From assembly GCA_944358755.1 (NCBI GenBank), contig CALVRY010000001.1:1-34079 (forward strand): 34,079 nucleotides of DNA, read 5' to 3'. A program made the translations under genes and the position numbers. Under the pieces are notes generated by a model. The model ran no database searches, was not told the origin of the DNA, and saw only the letters and a list, made by a program, of their open reading frames with translations. Origin of the DNA: an uncultured Bacilli bacterium (GTDB lineage Bacteria; Bacillota_I; Bacilli_A; RFN20; CAG-826). Positions 1-34,079 of the stretch are shown here, one piece after another; within the stretch, counting starts at the first letter, position 1, and each line of letters opens with the position of its first letter.

Positions 1-449
1 ATTTAGACCCAGAAGCAAACGAAAAATATGTCCCATATTGTATTGAACCAAGTTTAGGTTTAGACCGTTTATTCTTAATGATAGTGACTGATAGTTACGA
101 TGAAGAAGTATTAGAAAATGGTGAAACTAGAAAGATTATGCACTTAAAGCCATTCTTAGCTCCATATAAAGCAAGTATTTTACCATTAAGTAAACAGCTA
201 AACGATAAAGCTAAAGAAATTTTTGATTCATTAATTCCATTCTTACGTGTCAATTACGATACAACTGGAAGTATAGGCAAAAGATATAGAAGAAATGATG
301 AAATTGGAACTCCATATTGTGTTACAGTCGATTTTGAAACAGAAAACGATCAATGCGTTACTGTTAGAGAAAGAGACTCTATGAAACAAGAAAGAATTAA
401 AATAGCTGATTTAAGAAACTATTTATTAGAAAAAACTTTTTATAGATGA
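1..449 (+). CDS. glyQS: glycine--tRNA ligase, C-terminal fragment (5' end lies outside the window)
   Basis: The frame is open from position 3 (LDPEANEKYVPYCIEPSLGLDRLFL...). It carries the class II motif-3-like IEPSxGxDR and an anticodon-binding-domain tail. It ends at a TGA that overlaps the dnaG ATG (ATGA at 446-449). Confidence 0.85.
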   Translation, partial: LDPEANEKYVPYCIEPSLGLDRLFLMIVTDSYDEEVLENGETRKIMHLKPFLAPYKASILPLSKQLNDKAKEIFDSLIPFLRVNYDTTGSIGKRYRRNDEIGTPYCVTVDFETENDQCVTVRERDSMKQERIKIADLRNYLLEKTFYR

Positions 450-2305
450 GTGGAAATTTAATAGATTTAGCAAATGATATTTTAAGAAACGCTGATATAG
501 TCGAAGTAATTTCTCACTATATTAAAGTAGAGAAAAAAGGTAGAAATTATACTGGACTATGTCCTTTTCATGATGACAAATCTCTTGGAAATTTCTATAT
601 AAGTAAGGAAAAAGGGATTTTTAAGTGTTTTTCCTGCAATGCTGGCGGCAATGCAATCAATTTTGTTCAAAAAATCGAAAATCTATCTTATAAAGATGCA
701 GTTTTAAAAACAGCTGAATTAATTGGTTATCAAGATACAAGATTATTAAATTACCAAACAACAGTAAAAATTAATCCTGAAATTAAAGCAATCCAAGATT
801 GTTTAACAGAAATTAACAATTTTTATCAAAACAGTCTATTTTTTAGTGAAGATGGGAAAGATGCTTTAGATTATTTACATCATCGTGGATTAACTGATGA
901 TGTTATTAGATTTTTTAAGATTGGTTATGCTCAGTCAAAAGGTGAAAACATCATCGAATATTTAAAATCTAAGAATTTTTCGATTAAAACAATAGCAGAA
1001 ACAGGAATTATTCATTTAGAAACAACACCTTATAGAGATTTAAATGCTAATCGTATTACATTTGCAATTACTGATAGGAATAACCAAATTGTTGGTTTTA
1101 GTTGCAGAAAATTTAGAGATGGTGACACATCGAGTGCGAAATACGTAAATACATCTTCAACAAAATTATTTAATAAAGGAAATTTACTTTATAACTATTA
1201 CAACGCCTTGAACGAAGCTAAAAAATCTGGATATGTATATTTACTTGAAGGATTTATGGATGTTATTGCTTGCCATAGAGTTGGAATAAGAGCGGCAGTT
1301 GGATTAATGGGAACTGCATTATCTAAAGATAATTTGCAATCATTAAGATATTTCAATTGCGAAGTTCGACTTTGTCTTGATTTAGATGGTCCTGGACAGT
1401 TGAACATGAAAAAAATAAGCGATATTTTTGATGAATCAAATATTAAATATCGTCTAGTAAGTAACGAAGTAGACTTTCCAGAAAAAGATACTGATGAAAT
1501 TTTAAAAAAATATGGTGAAGATAAACTGAAAAGTTATCTTGCAAATCTTGTAAATAAGGGCGAGTGGTTAATCAAATACTTCAAAAAATCATTGAATTTA
1601 TCAACATTAGAAGGAAAAAAGCAAATTGTTAATAATTTAATACCCTATTTATCTACTTTAAAAGATGAATTAGAAATAGATTATTTTATTAATGAACTTT
1701 CTACTTTAAGTGGATATAGCTATCAAACAATTCAACAAGCTTTAAGAAGATATAACAAAAAATTAGATAAAAAGGACGAAGAAGCACTAAATGTTTTAAT
1801 TAAATCCAACAAAAGTGAGGCTCAAATTGTATTAAATAGGCTACAACTTGCCGAAAAGCAAGTTTTAAGATACATGTTGGAGAACAAAGATGTAATTGAG
1901 AAATATGACATTAAGTTAGGTTATTTTTCAACGCCTATTTATCGTGAAATAGCAAATGTAATCGAAGAATATGTTACACATATCCGAATAAACACTGATT
2001 ATAACATTAAAAATTTAATGACTTACTTATCCAGTGAAGATTTTGAAGCAAGAAATAAAGACAAAATCATGGCTGAAATTACTGATATTGCAGTCGATGA
2101 TTTCAAAGTGCCGCCTTATAGCGAGGAGCAATTTGATGATTTAATTCAAACCATTAACAAAGAAAGAGTTGAAAACCAAACTCTTGATGTTTATAAAAAT
2201 TCTTCTTTAAACAAAACCGAGATTGAGAAAGCAGAATACGCTAAAACATGTCTCGCTAAACTCAAATCGCTAATCGAAGAAGAAGATAAAAAAAGGAGGA
2301 ACTGA
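446..2305 (+). CDS. dnaG: DNA primase
   Basis: 619 aa. It has an N-terminal zinc-ribbon [26 protein letters not shown] and a TOPRIM region ([18 protein letters not shown]). It sits in the conserved glyS-dnaG-sigA order. Confidence 0.9.
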
Positions 2306-2307
2306 AT

Positions 2308-3585
2308 ATGGAAAGAAAAGTTAAAAAATCAACTAAGAAAAGCGAAGTAAAAATCGATGATATCGATACTAACGTCGAAGAAGTAAACATTGATGATTAC
2401 AATCCATCAGACGAAAAAGAAGATTTAATGACTTTAGATCAAATTGTTAAGAAATTTGAAGAAGCCAATAAAGATACAAAATTCATCGATCAAGATGAGT
2501 TTTTTGATGAAACTTCATATTTAGATTTAAGTGATCAAGATTATGAAAGAATATTTGATCATTTCAAAGAATTAGGCTACGAAGTTGCCGGCAGTAAAGA
2601 CAACGATTTAGAAAATGAAGATATGCCTGATGATTTTGATGAAAATGATTTAGAAAATGACGACACTTTCGATGATGATTTTGATAGCGATGAACAACAT
2701 CCTGAAAGTAACCTTGATATCAATAATTTAGATAACATCGAATCAAGCGATGTTAAAGTTAATGATAGCGTTAAACAATACTTAAAAGAAATTGGTAGAG
2801 TTCCTCTTTTAAAACCAAAAGAAGAAACTGAACTTGCAAAACGTATTGTTGCTGGCGATAAAAGAGCTAAAGATCAACTTATTAATGCTAATTTAAGATT
2901 AGTTGTTTCTATTGCTAAACACTACATTGGTAGAGGCATGCAATTCTTAGATCTTATTTCAGAAGGTAATTTGGGTCTTATTAAAGCAGTTGAAAAATTC
3001 GATTACAAAAAAGGATTCAAATTTTCAACATATGCAACTTGGTGGATACGACAAGCTATTACAAGAGCTATCGCTGATCAAGCAAGAACTATCAGAATTC
3101 CAGTCCATATGGTTGAAACAATCAACAAAATTACTAGAGTTCAAAGACAACTTGTCCAAGAATTAGGTAGAGAACCAACTGCAGAAGAAATTTCTAAGAA
3201 AATGGATAATGCTTTATCTCCAGATAGAATTAGAGAAATTACAACTTTAGCTTTAGAACCAGTTTCTCTTGAAAGTCCAATCGGTGAAGAAGATGACAGC
3301 CATCTTGGTGACTTCGTAGAAGACAAGGAATCAATTTCACCAACTGAATATACCAGAAAATCAATGAATCGTGATGCATTATTCAATGTTATGAACGATT
3401 TAACCGATAGAGAAGAAAGAGTTTTAAGATTAAGATATGGTTTAGATGACAATAGACCAAGAACTCTTGAAGAAGTAGGTAAAGAATTTGGTGTTACAAG
3501 AGAAAGAATCAGACAAATTGAAGCTAAAGCTATCAGAAAATTAAGACATCCAACAAGAACTAAAAAACTTGATGATTTACATTAA
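2308..3585 (+). CDS. sigA: primary RNA polymerase sigma factor (sigma-70/SigA) with a long acidic N-terminal region
   Basis: 425 aa. Region 2 is present ([30 protein letters not shown]), as is the region 4 HTH ([30 protein letters not shown]). A GGAGG SD lies upstream. Confidence 0.95.
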
Positions 3586-5954: not shown

Positions 5955-7316
5955 ATGCAATTTAAATCTTTTAATCTAAAACCAGAAATTATTAATGTTT
6001 TAAGTGACTTAGGTTACGTTAATTTAACAAAAATTCAAGAATTAGTGATTCCAAAAGCCTTAAAAGGAGAGAATATTATCGCTAAAAGTGAGACAGGGAG
6101 TGGAAAGACTCACGCTTTTATTGTTCCAATTATCAATAACATAGTTAGTGATAATAATTTACAAGCAATAATTATTAGTCCAACTAAAGAATTAGCTCAA
6201 CAAACATACTCATTTATCGTACAAATTGTAGAAAAATTAGAAAATATTACAGTAAAATTATTTTCAAGTGGTGAAGACACCACGAAAGACAGTAAATCTT
6301 TTTATAATGGTGCAAATATTATTGTTGCGACACCTGGCCGTTTATCATATTTATTAAATAACGTACAAATTGATTTATCAAATTTAAAAACAATCGTTCT
6401 TGATGAAGCGGATATGCTCATTGATAGAACTTTTATTGATGAAATTGATAAAATTTTTAGTATTGTCGACAAAAACAAGATTCAAATCGAAGTTTTTAGT
6501 GCAACAATATCGAATAATGTTAATGATTTTTTAAGAAAATATATTTCGCCTGACTATTTATTAACTGTTGATGACGAAAATAAAGCTTCAAAAAACGTTA
6601 AACATTTTTTCATCAACACCAAACACCAAGACAAATTCCAATTATTGTTAGATTTCATTAATTTAAAAAATCCTTATTTATTATTTGTTTTCGGTAATTC
6701 AAAAACTGAAGCCAAAAAAATATATGAATTTTTATCCGAAAATAAGTTTAAATGCGGATTTATTAGCGGTGAATTAGAAAAAAGAGAAAGAAGATCAATG
6801 CTTAGAAGAATCAAAAACGACCAATATCGTATTGTTGTCGGAACTGATTTGGCTGCAAGAGGCATTGATGTGGAAGATGTTAGTGATGTTTTAAACTTCA
6901 ACATTCCAAACAATTTAGAATATTATTATCACCGTGCAGGAAGAACAGGACGAATTGGCAAAAGTGGAAATTGCTATTCTTTTTATGATAACGATAATTT
7001 AAATTTGCCTTCAAAACTAATTAATGAAGGGCTGGAAGTGGAATACTTAAAATTTAACAATGGAGAATTAGTTAAAGATATTCCTTTAAATAAAGATATT
7101 AAAAAGAAAAAATCCAATGTTAATACAGATTTAGAAAGAGAAATCAAAAAAGCTAAATTTAAAGCAATGGGCAAAAAAGTTAAGCCTGGATACAAGAAAA
7201 AAGTTAAACAAGCAATTGATAAAGTCAAAAGAAAACATAGAAGAGAAGTCATTAAAAAAGACATTCGTAGACAAAGAGTCGAAAGATATAAAAACGAAGC
7301 CAAAAACAATATTTAG
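5955..7316 (+). CDS. cshB: DEAD-box ATP-dependent RNA helicase with a Lys/Arg-rich C-terminal tail
   Basis: 453 aa with Q-motif, GSGKTHAF, DEAD, SAT and HRAGRTGR. Its synteny matches B. subtilis yqfR (cshB), between ispH and ispG. Confidence 0.85.
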   Translation: MQFKSFNLKPEIINVLSDLGYVNLTKIQELVIPKALKGENIIAKSETGSGKTHAFIVPIINNIVSDNNLQAIIISPTKELAQQTYSFIVQIVEKLENITVKLFSSGEDTTKDSKSFYNGANIIVATPGRLSYLLNNVQIDLSNLKTIVLDEADMLIDRTFIDEIDKIFSIVDKNKIQIEVFSATISNNVNDFLRKYISPDYLLTVDDENKASKNVKHFFINTKHQDKFQLLLDFINLKNPYLLFVFGNSKTEAKKIYEFLSENKFKCGFISGELEKRERRSMLRRIKNDQYRIVVGTDLAARGIDVEDVSDVLNFNIPNNLEYYYHRAGRTGRIGKSGNCYSFYDNDNLNLPSKLINEGLEVEYLKFNNGELVKDIPLNKDIKKKKSNVNTDLEREIKKAKFKAMGKKVKPGYKKKVKQAIDKVKRKHRREVIKKDIRRQRVERYKNEAKNNI

Positions 7317-7373
7317 TGCTTAATTAGTATTTTATCAGTATATTATTAGTACATAATTAGTAGTAAATTAGTA
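7314..7373 (+). repeat. phased TAGTA array A (6 units, 11-bp register)
   Basis: The sequence reads TAGTGCTTAAT|TAGTATTTTAT|CAGTATATTAT|TAGTACATAAT|TAGTAGTAAAT|TAGTACATATC. It spans from the cshB stop to the ispG stop. Confidence 0.85.
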
Positions 7374-10122: not shown

Positions 10123-10140
10123 TAATATCAAAAGTCAATG

Positions 10141-10168
10141 AAAAACGCGATAATAATCGCGTTTTTTT
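10141..10168. terminator. bidirectional rho-independent terminator
   Basis: The sequence is AAAAACGCGAT-AATA-ATCGCGTTTTTTT. It forms a 7-bp GC-containing stem flanked by an A-run and a T-run. It lies between the convergent yneF and plsY. Confidence 0.7.
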
Positions 10169-10202
10169 ATTATCTGTAAAAATTTTGTAAGTTTTCCACA
10201 TA

Positions 10203-10229
10203 TACTAGAAAACTACTAATTATCTACTA
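10203..10229 (-). repeat. phased TAGTA array B (3 units, 11-bp register)
   Basis: The minus strand reads TAGTAGATAAT|TAGTAGTTTTC|TAGTATATGTG. On the plus strand, TACTA occurs at 10203, 10214 and 10225. The array lies immediately 3' of the plsY stop. Confidence 0.8.
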
Positions 10230-10233
10230 ATTG

Positions 10234-10986
10234 TTATTTCATCCAATGAATTTTATTCTCTTCACCTTTTTTTAATTTGATTAGATTACCTCTATGTTTG
10301 AAAACCAATAAGACGTATCCAATTGAAAAGAAAACAGGTAAATAAATTGATACATGAGGTCCAAATTCAGAGAACATTAAATATCCTGAAATTGTAGGTC
10401 CACATGTTGCAAACACAATGTATACAATCCAAGAAAATAAAGTAATACAACCAGTTGTGATTATCGATGTAATAGAAACAATTTTAGTTTTCTTTAAACA
10501 TATAAAGAAAATAGCAGCGAAAATTGGAATTGCAGTCCATGAAGTAGCAAGAATAAATCCTGCAAAAGTAGAAACGATTTTTCCACCTTTAAAACCTAAG
10601 AAGCAGCTATAAGCATGACCAAACATGCAACCAAGAGCGACTAAATAATAAGTTAATTCAGCTAAAGTATTACCTTGGCCAAAAATGTTATATGTTAAGT
10701 CATCGCCAAGCATCAATTGAGCAGCAGGTTCAAAATAAGTAAATAGTGCAAAAATGCTTAAAAATGGGATTATTACCTTGAAAAAATCAAGTGCCATCGT
10801 TGCGACACCAGCTCCTTTTGAAATTGAGCGTCCAACATTTGTTCCTCCGGGATTATGACTTCCATAATCACGTGGATCTTTGTGATAAAAAATTTTACTA
10901 ATAATTACACTATTTGGGATACTTCCAAATAGGTAGCCTAATAGAAAACAACCAATAAGTATCAATGTTCTGTAAAAGTAAATCAT
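10234..10986 (-). CDS. plsY: glycerol-3-phosphate acyltransferase PlsY
   Basis: 250 aa, polytopic, with GSIPNS and HNPGGTNVGR motifs. Confidence 0.9.
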   Translation of the reverse strand: MIYFYRTLILIGCFLLGYLFGSIPNSVIISKIFYHKDPRDYGSHNPGGTNVGRSISKGAGVATMALDFFKVIIPFLSIFALFTYFEPAAQLMLGDDLTYNIFGQGNTLAELTYYLVALGCMFGHAYSCFLGFKGGKIVSTFAGFILATSWTAIPIFAAIFFICLKKTKIVSITSIITTGCITLFSWIVYIVFATCGPTISGYLMFSEFGPHVSIYLPVFFSIGYVLLVFKHRGNLIKLKKGEENKIHWMK

Positions 10987-16000: not shown

Positions 16001-16059
16001 GTTTAAAATTACATTTCAAACCACCAAAAATTCAATCAAATTAGCAAAAAGTTGATAAT

Positions 16060-16097
16060 TAGTAGGTTCTTAGTAGTTTTCTAGTAAATAATAGGTA
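16060..16097 (+). repeat. phased TAGTA array C (3 units plus a slipped fourth)
   Basis: The sequence reads TAGTAGGTTCT|TAGTAGTTTTC|TAGTAAATAAT|AGGTATG. TAGTA occurs at 16060, 16071 and 16082. The array ends 8 nt before the yqeG ATG. Confidence 0.8.
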
Positions 16098-28906: not shown

Positions 28907-30665
28907 TATCCTTCTCCTTTATAACTTCAATTCCTAATTTATCTAATTGCTCTTTATCAACTTCATAAGGAGCATTGGAAACTGGATCAACTGCAGCTAA
29001 ATTTTTAGGGAAGGCAATAACATCACGAATATTATCTGTTCCACTCAAAATCATCGCTAGTCTATCTAAACCACAAGCAAATCCACCATGTGGAGGTGTG
29101 CCATATTTTAATGATTCAACGAAGAAACCAAATTTTTTATTGATATCTTCTTGAGTAAATCCAAGGACTTTAAATATCATTTCTTGAACTTTTTGGTCGT
29201 AAATTCTTAAAGAACCACCGCCAGCTTCATATCCATTAATGACAATATCATAAGCATAGCTATAAACGTTATATGGTTCGGTGAACAATTTATCTATATC
29301 TTCATCACATGGTCTTGTGAATGGATGGTGACAAGGTGTAATTTCGCCTGTTTCTTCGCTCTTTTCGAATAAAGGGAAATGTACAACCCAGAGCAAATCA
29401 TAAGTATTTGGTTTAATTAAACCTAATTCTTTAGCAAGTGTACTACGGACAGCACCTAAGCCGAAGTTAATATCTCTTAAAATATTACCGGTTGCAATAA
29501 TAAGTGCGTCGCCTTCATTAACTTCCATTGCTTTTTTTAGTTCTTCTTGAAGTTCAGGAGAAATAAATTTAGCAATACTTCCTTCAAATGCACCATTTTC
29601 ATATTTAAGGTATGCAAATTGTTTCATATTAAATTTTGGTGCAATTAAGTTGATAGTATCTTGTCTCTTTCTGCTTAAATCTTTAGCAAAATTTTCTACC
29701 TTGATCGCCTTAATATATTTGTTATCTTGATATAATTTGAATTCAGATCTACTAAGAATGTACTTAATATCTACTAGAAACATACTAAAACGTGTGTCTG
29801 GCTTATCAGAACCATATTTATTTACTGCTTCAAGATAATCCATTCTTCTTAAAGGTAATTTAACATCAAAATCGATAACATCTTTGAAAATTTTAGCGAT
29901 AAGTCCTTCTCCTAAAGATAAAATTTCATCTTGATTTAAAAAGCTTGTCTCAACATCGATTTGTGTAAAATCAGGTTGTCTATCTGCTCTTAAATCTTCA
30001 TCTCTGAAACATCTAGCGATTTGATAATATCTTTCAAATCCTGCAACCATAAGCATCTGTTTATAAAGTTGAGGAGATTGAGGTAATGCATAAAAAGAAC
30101 CTTTATGCACTCTACTTGGTACTAAATAATCTCTCGCGCCTTCTGGAGTTGATGGAGAAAGATAAGGTGTTTCAATTTCAATAAAATCATGCGAATCAAG
30201 ATATTCATGAGTAGCTTTAACGATTTTTGCTCTAATTTTAAAGCGGCGTTGCATACAGTTTCTTCTTAAATCAAGATATCTATATTTAAGACGAATATCT
30301 TCATTAGCATCAGTTACTTCTTGAGTTGAAATTGGAGGTTGCATTGCAGTATTAATTACTTTAATTTCACTTGCTAAAACCTCAACTTCTCCAGTTGCTA
30401 AATTTTTATTTGAAACATCTTTTTTACTAACAATCCCTTTAACTTGAAGAACATATTCGTTTCTAATATCAGGAAGCTTGATTTCATCAGTTTTTACGCA
30501 AATTTGAACATAACCTTCTCTATCTCTTAAATCGATAAAAAGAAGACTTCCTAAATTACGCTTTTTAGAAACCCAACCTAATAAAGAAACTTCTCTACCT
30601 ACATCTTTAAGACGTAAAGTTCCACAATAATCAGTTCTAACGAACTTTTCTTCAACGTTTTCCAT
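28899..30665 (-). CDS. aspS: aspartate--tRNA ligase
   Basis: I prefer the start at ATG 30665 (MENVEEKFVRTDYCGTLR). It gives 588 aa and leaves a 20-nt spacer after hisS. Class II motifs are present (FRDEDLRADRQPDFTQ, GGFACGLDR). Confidence 0.9.
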   Translation of the reverse strand: MENVEEKFVRTDYCGTLRLKDVGREVSLLGWVSKKRNLGSLLFIDLRDREGYVQICVKTDEIKLPDIRNEYVLQVKGIVSKKDVSNKNLATGEVEVLASEIKVINTAMQPPISTQEVTDANEDIRLKYRYLDLRRNCMQRRFKIRAKIVKATHEYLDSHDFIEIETPYLSPSTPEGARDYLVPSRVHKGSFYALPQSPQLYKQMLMVAGFERYYQIARCFRDEDLRADRQPDFTQIDVETSFLNQDEILSLGEGLIAKIFKDVIDFDVKLPLRRMDYLEAVNKYGSDKPDTRFSMFLVDIKYILSRSEFKLYQDNKYIKAIKVENFAKDLSRKRQDTINLIAPKFNMKQFAYLKYENGAFEGSIAKFISPELQEELKKAMEVNEGDALIIATGNILRDINFGLGAVRSTLAKELGLIKPNTYDLLWVVHFPLFEKSEETGEITPCHHPFTRPCDEDIDKLFTEPYNVYSYAYDIVINGYEAGGGSLRIYDQKVQEMIFKVLGFTQEDINKKFGFFVESLKYGTPPHGGFACGLDRLAMILSGTDNIRDVIAFPKNLAAVDPVSNAPYEVDKEQLDKLGIEVIKEKDNG

Positions 30666-32137: not shown

Positions 32138-34079
32138 CTAATGAATAACTCTTTTTACTTCGTAAATATCTTTTGTGCTAGTTAAAATACTTTCGACGTG
32201 ATTTAAAACGTTGGCATCACTAACATAAATTTGAGCATAAACGCTTGTTCTATTGGTATCTGGATGCATTTTAGCTGTCATTTCAGTACATTTAATCTTA
32301 TTTGAATTAAAGATATTTAAAATATCCGCAACTAAATTTTGACGATCTATACATTCGATAACAATATCAACTGGATATGATTTAATACCTAGATTTTCTT
32401 TCCAATGAACAGGAATTAATCTGTTTCTTAATCCTGTTACATTAGGGCAATTAATTCTATGAACTGTTATACCATTACCTTTTGTAACATAACCTACAAT
32501 GTTATCCCCTGGAATTGGCGTACAGCAATTTCCTAAGGTAATTTTAAAGCCAGTTTGACCATCAACAGTGACTGGGCAATTGTCGTCATCAAAGTTTTCT
32601 TTCTTAAAAAGTTTATTAAAATTATCGTCTTTCCTTTTAATTCCTAAAAAGTCTGCAATTTGACTTGGGTTAGGATTATGAGCACAAATTTGAATGAATA
32701 AGTCCTCAATAGTAGAAGATTGGTAGTTTTTTAGTACTTTTTCAGTATTTAATAAGTTCATCATTTCTCTTTCGTCGATACCTCTATCTTTGAAAAAGTC
32801 CTCTGCTATTTGTTTTCCTTGTCTAATTTTATCGTCTCTTAAATAGAGAGCGTTCTTCTTTTGTAAGAACTTTTTAATGTGACTTTTAGCACTATTTGTT
32901 TTAACAATATTTAACCAGTTTTCGTTTGGACCAGGTGATGTTTTTGAAGTTCTAATTTCGACGATATCACCTGTTTTTAAGACTGTATTTAATGGAACAA
33001 GATTTCCGTTAACCATTGCTCCTATTGCAGAATCACCAACTTTAGTATGAATTTTATAAGCTAAATCTAATGGGGTCGAACCATTTGGCAAATCGATGAC
33101 TTTTCCTTTTGGAGTAAAGACATAAACATTCGCTTCAAAAATATCTTTACTTAAAGATTCCATATATTCAGTCGCACTCTTATTTTGAGTTTCGCTATTT
33201 ATATGTAAGAAATCACGGAACCAATGAAGTTTTTCTTCAATTTCATGTTGCTCTTGTTTTGGACTATAATGACTTCCTTCTTTATATCTCCAGTGAGCTG
33301 CAACACCAGTTTCAGCAATTTCATCCATCTCTTTAGTACGAATTTGAACCTCAAAGATATTTCCATCACCTGCAATAATCGATGTATGTAAAGATTGATA
33401 CATATTTGGTTTAGGCATTGCGATATAATCCTTAAATCTACCAGGAATAGGTTTAAAATGTGCGTGAATCAAGCCTAAAATTTCGTAACAATTTAATTCT
33501 GTTTCGGTAATAATTCTTAAAGCTAAAAAGTCATAAATTTCATCAAATGTATGGCCTTTTAAATACATTTTCTTATAAATTGAGTAAATTGACTTAATAC
33601 GAGACTCAATTTCAAATTTTATATTTTGTTCAATTAAAATATCAGCTATTTTTTTCTTTAAATTGTTTAACGCTCTTGTTCTATTTTTAATTTTTTCATC
33701 AAGTTCGCGAGCTATTGCATGATATTCATCAGGTTTTTCGACTTCTAGAGATAAATCTTCGAGTTGACTTTCAACTCTATAAATACCTAAACGGTGGGCA
33801 ATTGGAGCAAAAACTTCAAGAGTTTCTTTAGCAAGAGCATGTTGTCTTTCAGGTTTAAGCGCCTTAACTGTTCTCATATTATGAAGTCTATCAGCAAGTT
33901 TAATAATAATAACACGAACATCTTTTGCCATACCTAAAAAGATTTTTTTATGATCTTCAGCTGCAAATTCCTCTTCGGTTCTATGTGAAAGTTTCAATCT
34001 TTGAATTTTTGTCAATGCATCAACAATTCATGCGCAATCTTCTCCATATAATTTCTTAATATCATCGATTGTGGTTTCA
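32138..34079 (-). CDS. relA: RelA/SpoT-family (p)ppGpp synthetase/hydrolase, 5'-partial, with an in-frame TGA at 34028-34030
   Basis: The 625-aa ORF carries the HD-domain end (DRLHNMRT) and the synthetase, TGS and ACT regions. The same frame continues upstream of a single TGA as ETTIDDIKKLYGEDCA*IVDALTKI. That segment aligns with the B. subtilis RelA sequence ...FGSEVAMLVDGVTKL. Confidence 0.8.

Follow-up and report, generated by a model that had tools for sequence, protein, structure and literature searches.

A stretch of 34,079 nucleotides (nt) from an uncultured Bacilli bacterium (GenBank assembly GCA_944358755.1, contig CALVRY010000001.1, positions 1 to 34,079; hereafter, the window) carries a family of intergenic arrays, in which a short core, TAGTA, is repeated at a strict period of 11 base pairs (bp). 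The arrays are conserved at orthologous positions in other species, and in the window they cluster around a dif site, one of them at a fixed distance from it. We favour, tentatively and short of calling it probable, the reading that these arrays are phased DNA docking platforms for a protein, which would act directionally in the terminus region.

An earlier note, made from the letters of this DNA, had described three dispersed copies (B, C and E) of a conserved composite element of ca. 33 bp. All three copies are present, with the TAGTA strand at 10199-10232 (minus; within the 10197-10233 given in that note), 16057-16090 (plus) and 24713-24746 (minus), the last being shifted by 1 nt from the position given there. 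Their occurrence is not due to chance: the 17-mer TTAGTAGTTTTCTAGTA is found exactly three times in the window, and when up to three mismatches are allowed, there are 10 hits versus 0.43 expected. A search of the window for TAGTA-N6-TAGTA-N6-TAGTA with up to two mismatches gave 18 overlapping hits at seven loci (0.11 expected). Distances between TAGTA motifs on the same strand were 11 bp (11 cases), 22 bp (eight cases) or 33 bp (two cases), and almost nothing else; spacings of 10 or 12 bp do not occur in the window. We therefore conclude, from these distances and the seven loci, that the feature is a strictly 11-bp-phased motif array and not a fixed 33-bp sequence. The construction from phased units, noticed earlier, stands, while the number of copies has to be revised, since there are at least five conserved arrays of three to six units each:

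7314-7373, plus strand: array A, six phased units (TAGTG, TAGTA, CAGTA, TAGTA, TAGTA, TAGTA).
10199-10232 (cores 10203-10229), minus strand: array B, three perfect units, starting 1 nt past the plsY stop codon.
16049-16097 (perfect units 16060-16086), plus strand: array C, three perfect units and degenerate in-phase flanking units.
18844-18881, minus strand: array D, four units, beginning 9 nt after the orf183 stop codon.
24713-24754 (perfect units 24717-24743), minus strand: array E, three perfect units and one degenerate unit.

What is kept between species is also not the 33-bp sequence as such, but the core, TAGTA, and its 11-bp phase. Only in this species do B, C and E agree almost fully over 33 bp, and the spacers of their orthologues in sister species (L123 and L124) differ. 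A matrix of 149 units from the window and related genomes gave the unit consensus WWYTAGTAGWT; the G of the core is present in 148 of the 149 units, a G never occurs at position -1, and 120 units have T at position +7. When the five arrays were compared in three species, pairwise identity was 0.91-0.96 in AGTA, 0.68 in the flanks and 0.43-0.61 at spacer positions +5 and +6. The core of the array is under purifying selection, while the spacers drift. The number of units changes by whole 11-bp steps; array C, for example, has three units in one species and five in another. Spacers GATAAT and GTTTTC reappear in arrays of other genera (L032, L046, L084 and L100; L numbers denote loci from other genomes or contigs), which suggests preferred spacers or concerted evolution.

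Folding of the arrays revealed no predicted structure (z from -1.6 to +0.5), and there was no Rfam hit in the window; a hairpin terminator and a known RNA were rejected on these grounds. The earlier note had also pointed to stop codons in all three forward frames. These are a trivial result of TAG being repeated at a period of 11, and the opposite strand has them too (TAA in CTACTAAT); they do not, therefore, speak for a function, and a role as fail-safe stops was discarded, AT-rich DNA being full of stops anyway.

Four loci with ca. 76-80% nucleotide identity to the window (L123-L126) were recovered via YqeH. All five arrays are present in each of them, in the same position, strand and phase, and with different spacers. 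In more distant species, arrays B, C and D are kept in L127, arrays C and D in L251 and L253, and array D in L250; the position of array B lies beyond the end of the L251 locus. In L127 and L251, array E is degenerate, though still phased, and in L253 it went undetected. It is kept in at least four genera; in L004, the same array follows xseB. Two 21-kilobase (kb) loci from other genera (L254 and L255), which were fetched via HisS and thus not selected for arrays, contain exactly one array each, and in both cases it fills the gap between xseB and dinB. In the distant locus L006, array C is found after parC.

The earlier note had left room for the copies to lack conservation in relatives, or to be ends of a miniature inverted-repeat transposable element (MITE) or an insertion sequence (IS) that continues beyond the 33 bp. 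Both points were looked at: the arrays are kept at orthologous positions in other species, and similarity stops at the array. In alignments of arrays A-E with their orthologues and with each other, similarity was confined to the array, and neither terminal inverted repeats nor target-site duplications were found. The presence/absence variation expected of a mobile element was not seen, the arrays occupying orthologous positions in the relatives. A mobile or neutral repeat is thus ruled out, as far as alignments can tell, because positions are orthologous, the core is conserved, similarity ends at the array, and inverted repeats and target duplications are missing.

Between yqeK and array D, and just beyond that array, the following features were found:

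18723-18750, plus strand: dif site ACTTCGTATAATATCTATTATGTAAATT, XerD arm facing array D.
18762-18807, minus strand: hairpin (z = -3.9) predicted as the intrinsic terminator of orf183, in the spacer from array D to dif; position kept in relatives.
18891-19442, minus strand: orf183, a predicted divergent MazF/PemK-fold protein, with homologues at 46-690 (plus) of L006 and 422-913 (minus) of L004.

The dif site matches 24 of the 28 positions of the experimentally defined dif of B. subtilis (PMC3025954), and ACTTCGTATAATATCTATTATGTAAATT is invariant in the sister species amid a diverged spacer. The xerD gene lies 3.9 kb from it, in an operon with dinB. Both gene orientation and GC skew switch at ca. 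18.7 kb, where genes and skew converge. In relatives, mobile single-stranded DNA (ssDNA) elements are inserted exactly at this site. In the 91%-identical relative L107/L250, homology is lost in the middle of dif (from position 6100 of L107), and a 5.5-kb insert coding for a Rep_OBD (pMV158 RepB-type) protein, flanked by a perfect and a hybrid dif, occupies 14.8-20.2 kb of L250. In L252, the insert at dif (14.8-19.7 kb) is a prophage of the Microviridae type, which codes for a Phage_F capsid protein as well as a gpII-like Rep and has tandem dif-like sites. The XerD arm is kept in the sites that flank either insert. From the dif match, the switch in genes and skew, and the integrations exactly at dif in relatives, we conclude that the window contains the replication terminus and an active Xer site.

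All five conserved arrays of the window lie within -11.4 to +6 kb of dif, and no arrays were found in the next 10 kb to the right in the same species (L247). A scan of a genome collection returned at least 120 blocks of up to 8 kb; among the matches listed, 17 came from metagenome-assembled genomes of low-GC Bacilli or "Mollicutes" and had window-like units. A dif or hybrid dif is present in four of these 17 array-selected blocks (L004, L006, L107 and L121), while ca. 0.1 would be expected if arrays were evenly spread over a genome with an assumed size of ca. 1 megabase. L004 has three arrays, L121 has three within 640 bp, and L006 has two, whereas none of the 13 blocks without dif among the matches listed has a second one. 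The 5'-to-3' direction of TAGTA is towards dif for arrays A and C (plus strand) on one side and D and E (minus strand) on the other, and for all arrays in L004, L006 and L121.

In six species-level lineages, 93-95 bp separate the XerD arm of dif from the first core of array D (94 bp in the window). This distance is kept although only 16 of the ca. 94 aligned columns of the spacer are invariant and the alignment needs compensating gaps. On the other side of dif, the distance to yqeK varies from 20 to 66 bp. The corresponding array-dif distance is 115 bp in L121, 125 bp in L004, and ca. 105-116 bp in L006, depending on whether a degenerate third unit is counted.

In the window genus, L006 and L004, the order is the same: gene of the orf183 family, its stop codon, TAGTA array, ca. 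90-125 bp, and dif, with the XerD arm nearest; the L004 homologue is a weak one (E = 0.019). Searches of Pfam and NCBIfam with orf183 and a profile search against PDB sequences gave no hit, while a full HMMER search defined an unannotated family of 46 clusters, whose members are each 150-200 amino acids (aa) long and have N- and C-terminal helices. An AlphaFold2 model made with a 38-sequence alignment reached a pLDDT of 82 (35 with seven sequences). In a Foldseek search, the core of this model was placed on MazF/Kid toxins with target-normalised TM-scores of 0.65-0.78, the top matches being MazF of S. aureus, E. coli and B. subtilis. The L006 homologue matches Pfam PemK_toxin at 2.3e-8, which passes the cut-off. 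The protein is thus predicted from the model to have the MazF/Kid/CcdB fold. There is no antitoxin gene adjacent to orf183; the upstream gene codes for an ABC transporter permease. The MazF catalytic Arg and Thr are not kept in the window genus, which has KC and CPIY at those motifs (as compared with the L006 sequence), and the catalytic residues are mostly lost across the family. By its adjacency, orf183 is a possible partner of the arrays; since this adjacency is probably a single ancestral event, it is weak evidence.

The core is conserved, the spacers are free, and the period is invariant and corresponds to one helical turn; from this we infer that several copies of one sequence-specific protein would bind an array head to tail and cooperatively. 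As the 11-bp period matches one helical turn, all cores would be presented on one face of the DNA. The element described earlier would then be one of a family of cis-acting arrays of three to six direct repeats of an 11-bp unit, and a bound array would be a directional nucleoprotein block on duplex DNA. Such a block may serve as a barrier or a guide for machines that travel along DNA: RNA polymerase at the boundaries of transcription units and, as possible further targets, replication forks or the FtsK/SpoIIIE-Xer machinery at dif. A role at the level of DNA is favoured because some well-formed arrays are inverted with respect to their neighbouring genes, because arrays cluster at dif, and because one of them is kept at a fixed distance from a DNA site. 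A bolder version, that TAGTA arrays, the divergent MazF-fold protein and dif together make up an undescribed terminus system of an uncultured Bacilli clade, we consider doubtful. Such a system could be a third fork trap of independent origin, a guide for translocases, or a group of accessory sites controlling Xer recombination at dif, with the MazF-fold protein recognising the TAGTA strand and so giving polarity.

The placement of the arrays relative to genes bears on this proposal. Arrays A-E and the arrays of the 17 blocks among the matches listed are all intergenic, and no common function of the flanking genes was found. Four settings can be distinguished. In the first, convergent genes have nothing else in the gap between them (A, L036 and L084); the first TAG of array A is the stop codon of the DEAD-box helicase gene, and the array, which has no hairpin terminator, spans the whole gap to ispG, the convergent gene, and runs into the 3' end of the latter. 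In the second, a stop codon is followed by an array and then by an intrinsic terminator (B, D, L032, L006 and L121). Array B belongs here, and its position between the plsY stop codon (TAA, 10234-10236) and a bidirectional terminator agrees with the earlier description:

10140-10167, both strands: predicted bidirectional intrinsic terminator, common to the UPF0154 gene (plus) and to plsY with array B (minus); z = -4.4 for the whole 3' region of B.

In the third setting, an array lies between cistrons, and its end is 0-5 nt before the ATG of a gene lacking a Shine-Dalgarno (SD) sequence (three arrays). Array E takes up the 33 nt that separate xseB (stop codon) from dinB (ATG). This ATG is 5 nt past the last core and has no SD; in every lineage where the array was detected (four genera), it ends 2-5 nt before the ATG of dinB or dxs. 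Array C is flanked by two divergent genes, orf80 and yqeG. In the window it is 18 nt upstream of the yqeG ATG, and in L123, L124 and L127 it abuts that ATG, again with no SD. In the fourth setting, well-formed arrays are inverted with respect to both neighbouring genes (L054, L073 and L100).

Several of these observations, and others, weigh against a directional DNA platform. In ca. 13 of 17 positional classes, counted over the window and the matches listed, the array is in the sense of the preceding gene, and the first unit usually starts 0-10 nt past the stop codon of that gene; the first TAG of A and of the L254 array doubles as this stop codon. As arrays lie in sense, just after a stop codon and upstream of hairpin terminators, they appear to be transcribed within 3' untranslated regions (3'UTRs) and not to be needed there as terminators, and the arrays that abut SD-less start codons hint at a role at the RNA level. 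Of the 17 array-bearing blocks among the matches listed, 13 show no dif. Polarity is not absolute: array B points away from dif, sharing the strand of the lagging-strand gene plsY. Orientation towards dif is moreover confounded with gene orientation, and GC3 skew (skew at third codon positions), a guide to replication direction that does not depend on the gene strand, was uninformative. The conserved length of the spacer between array D and dif could be due in part to the terminator within it. Finally, the candidate for the cognate protein is orf183, the product of the sole orphan gene nearby, and its predicted fold is that of MazF.

The main rival draws on much of the same evidence. UAGUA repeats in 3'UTRs and between cistrons might be bound or cut by a sequence-specific single-strand-binding protein, perhaps one of the orf183 family with its MazF/PemK fold; we regard this as possible, if on balance improbable. 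The motifs at which MazF enzymes cut are short and U/A-rich, and such cuts can give rise to leaderless mRNAs; in type III toxin-antitoxin systems, the ToxN toxins resemble Kid/MazF and are paired with tandem RNA repeats. Cleavage at an array could trim 3' ends protected by a terminator, giving autoregulation in the case of orf183, or could yield near-leaderless dinB and yqeG mRNAs, and 11 nt would be the footprint of a dimer in a filament. The sense orientation just past stop codons, the arrays upstream of terminators at B and D, and those placed next to the start codons of dinB, dxs and yqeG all speak for it, as do the many genes that look leaderless, with TAnAAT 6 nt before the ATG, and the array that follows the stop codon of a MazF-fold gene without an antitoxin in the window genus, L006 and, for a weak homologue, L004. 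An RNase, however, needs no strict 11-nt period. Three or four well-formed arrays are inverted with respect to both flanking genes (L054, L073 and L100 among them), clustering around dif and the fixed distance are left unexplained, catalytic Arg and Thr are replaced in the window genus, and the adjacency of gene and array counts for little, as it probably arose once. Ordinary operators for a transcription factor, of the OmpR/PhoB response-regulator type or another head-to-tail binder, with a small regulon that includes dinB-xerD and the yqeG operon, are an unlikely alternative on the following balance. The arrays share the classic architecture of the boxes of the OmpR/PhoB family, in which a core of 5-6 bp is directly repeated every 11 bp. 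Arrays C and E are immediately upstream of genes, and a downstream gene in the same sense is found at ca. 10 of 22 arrays of the window and the matches listed. Against this, no gene is found downstream of A, B, D, L036, L084 and others, which are placed in a convergent gap or before a terminator; the flanking genes have no function in common; the tie to the end of the upstream gene is stronger than that to the start of the downstream gene; and clustering at dif is again unexplained. Other candidates for sites of a transcriptional or replicative kind were rejected. The boxes of Fur, CodY, FapR, MraZ and CtsR are not known to match either the core or the direct-repeat geometry. A consensus scan puts no sigma-70 promoters in the arrays, and there is no TAnAAT at leaderless distance before dinB or yqeG. 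Primase initiation at CTA/TTA sites was dropped, such sites being far too common to need arrays.

A link to DnaA was considered because of a motif that directly follows array B:

10190-10201, minus strand: invariant 12-mer ATGTGGAAAACT, DnaA-box-like (TTTTCCACA on the plus strand).

Either ATGTGGAAAACT or TGTGGATAA follows TAGTA arrays in four lineages: the window, L004 (ca. 349-360, minus), L006 (738-748, plus) and L121 (123-140, plus). A DnaA-box-like ATGTGGAAAA is found between array and dif in L004 and L006, while in the window genus the same 10-12-mer follows array B instead; L121 has two perfect DnaA boxes between array and dif. The arrays might therefore titrate or position DnaA, and TAGTAG pairs do resemble the single-strand motifs known as DnaA-trios, TAGTAG being equal to two of them (PMC10316083). 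The order is also that of oriC, trios and then a box, at the four arrays (B, L004, L006 and L121) that are followed by TGTGGAAAA or TGTGGATAA. Trios must, however, be contiguous triplets, whereas TAGTAG pairs are separated by 5 nt and the 11-bp period is out of triplet register; the arrays are at the terminus and not at oriC; most arrays have no box, a box-like 9-mer being found at only four of them; and at B one half of a hairpin is another explanation for this 9-mer, since ATGTGGAAAACT pairs with GTTTTCTA of the last array B spacer over 9 bp. We consider a DnaA-related element very unlikely. The reading that we find hardly credible is a selfish or neutral repeat, either the end of a MITE or IS or a functionless minisatellite born by slippage. 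The near-identity of B, C and E within the species would fit it, as would the fact that 11-bp tandem repeats with TAGTAG are common in phage contigs. It is already contradicted by the comparative data, in which orthologous copies are found at ca. 76% identity and in other genera with the core kept and the spacers diverged.

The arrays have the properties of phased direct-repeat binding arrays, namely three to six direct repeats at 11 bp and a core that is conserved at 0.91-0.96 versus 0.43-0.61 for the spacer. Known examples include the 11-bp iterons of ParR-parC of plasmid R1 and the three 11-bp repeats that are bound by RepB of pMV158. Like these sites and OmpR/PhoB boxes, the arrays consist of at least three head-to-tail direct repeats with an 11-bp period, a short conserved core and free spacers. 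Unlike them, they are chromosomal, dispersed, and located at the ends of orthologous genes and not at a promoter, centromere or origin, and their core sequence is unrelated. A search of the literature for the array motif (ATTAGTAG and TAGTAGGT) returned nothing comparable, the work on DnaA-trios being all that was relevant.

The known replication fork traps are two, Tus-Ter of E. coli and RTP-Ter of B. subtilis (PMC10331603, PMC13220808). Their Ter sites are a single 23-bp site or a 32-bp site composed of A and B half-sites (PMC13220808). Similarly to Ter sites, the arrays are several polar sites concentrated around dif and the terminus, in what may be two opposed groups, with a small lineage-restricted gene by the innermost one. 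In contrast to Ter sites, they are phased repeats without sequence similarity, array B has the wrong polarity, and neither the arrays nor orf183 show homology to Tus-Ter or RTP-Ter. The neighbouring orf183 protein has a predicted MazF fold, unlike Tus or the winged-helix RTP. For Rok, a xenogeneic silencer of B. subtilis, the winged helix prefers the 5-mers TACTA and AACTA (PMC6212790), and TACTA is the reverse complement of the array core. The arrays, however, have an invariant TACT and a variable last base, while Rok needs ACTA; Rok is also restricted to some Bacillus species, and phased arrays have not been described for it. For Rok sites, the evidence is thus mixed: the core matches, but variability by position is different.

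Other known elements have one trait each in common with the arrays. KOPS and SRS, which guide FtsK and SpoIIIE, are polar motifs directed towards dif on both chromosome arms; unlike the 33-66-bp intergenic arrays, they are single 7-8-mers that are frequent genome-wide and occur also in genes. With ToxIN and with MazF-generated leaderless mRNAs, the arrays share a Kid/MazF-fold gene beside a tandem repeat and a terminator, and a position just upstream of start codons. The ToxI repeats are, however, 36 nt long, structured and upstream of the toxin gene, whereas the array units are 11 nt long, unstructured and downstream of orf183, in which the catalytic residues are not conserved. Repetitive extragenic palindromic (REP) elements and the bacterial interspersed mosaic elements (BIMEs) are likewise dispersed, occurring in gaps between convergent genes and where genes have their 3' ends. 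REP elements are hairpin-forming palindromes, while the arrays are direct repeats without predicted structure.

Two further array-like runs were found within coding regions:

29750-29787, minus strand: run F, inside aspS, sense.
32710-32747, plus strand: run G, inside relA, antisense.

Both are kept in some relatives and absent in L248. Their status is doubtful, because they lie in conserved coding sequence and protein-coding constraint is enough to explain their conservation.

The host is a low-GC (ca. 29%) member of the uncultured Bacilli that uses the standard genetic code. It comes from a metagenome of gut or rumen type, and its HisS shares 64% identity with the HisS of Candidatus Onthovivens. 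Genes of the window are arranged in the order dnaG-sigA ... DEAD, ispG ... efp, plsY, parE-parC, yqeG-yqeH-yhbY-yqeK in the left part and orf183 ... deoB-xerD-dinB-xseB-xseA-nusB-tkt-aspS-hisS-relA in the right part. A 49-aa rpmG gene (ribosomal protein L33; 8515-8664, plus strand), which is under the cut-off used for the length of open reading frames, is located between ispG and the MBL-fold gene. Many SD-less genes (ispG, plsY, a lytB-like gene, and the DEAD, MBL-fold and ABC permease genes) have a TAnAAT that ends 6 nt before the ATG, which suggests that leaderless mRNAs are widespread. In other, internal cistrons, the start codon comes within a few nt of where the preceding cistron stops.

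In viral contigs, a scan yielded mostly perfect 11-bp iterons unrelated to the TAGTA family and one window-like case, the phage contig L232 (32% GC), where the array TAGTAGATAATTAGTAGATTATTAGTAG lies at 3095-3130 (minus strand) in a 700-bp intergenic region between gene modules. A separate tandem 11-bp family, GATTAGTAGGT, with three to eight units, was seen in at least ca. 40 Bacteroidales/Paludibacteraceae loci (for example, at 253-318 of L005 and 3377-3453 of L061). Its arrays are usually 90-170 bp upstream of a gene on the same strand, are followed in many loci by a conserved tail of ca. 70 nt (TATAATCGGTATCATC...GGA...), and in L074 and L101 lie ca. 2.8 kb upstream of a 16S rRNA gene.

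The TAGTA arrays belong to a known kind of element, phased direct-repeat binding arrays, and there is a realistic chance that they are part of a new terminus system. They are a conserved, polar and phased cis-element around dif in widespread uncultured Bacilli of gut and rumen, and one copy, beside an orphan MazF-fold gene, keeps a constant distance to the XerD arm. So simple a motif can be put to a direct test in either case, using synthetic DNA or RNA together with proteins expressed in another host. Should a protein that acts on replication forks, translocases or Xer recombination bind the arrays, they would define a terminus system not seen before. Should they work at the RNA level, they would be a novel type of motif, marking the boundaries of cistrons in a genome in which leaderless mRNAs appear to abound.

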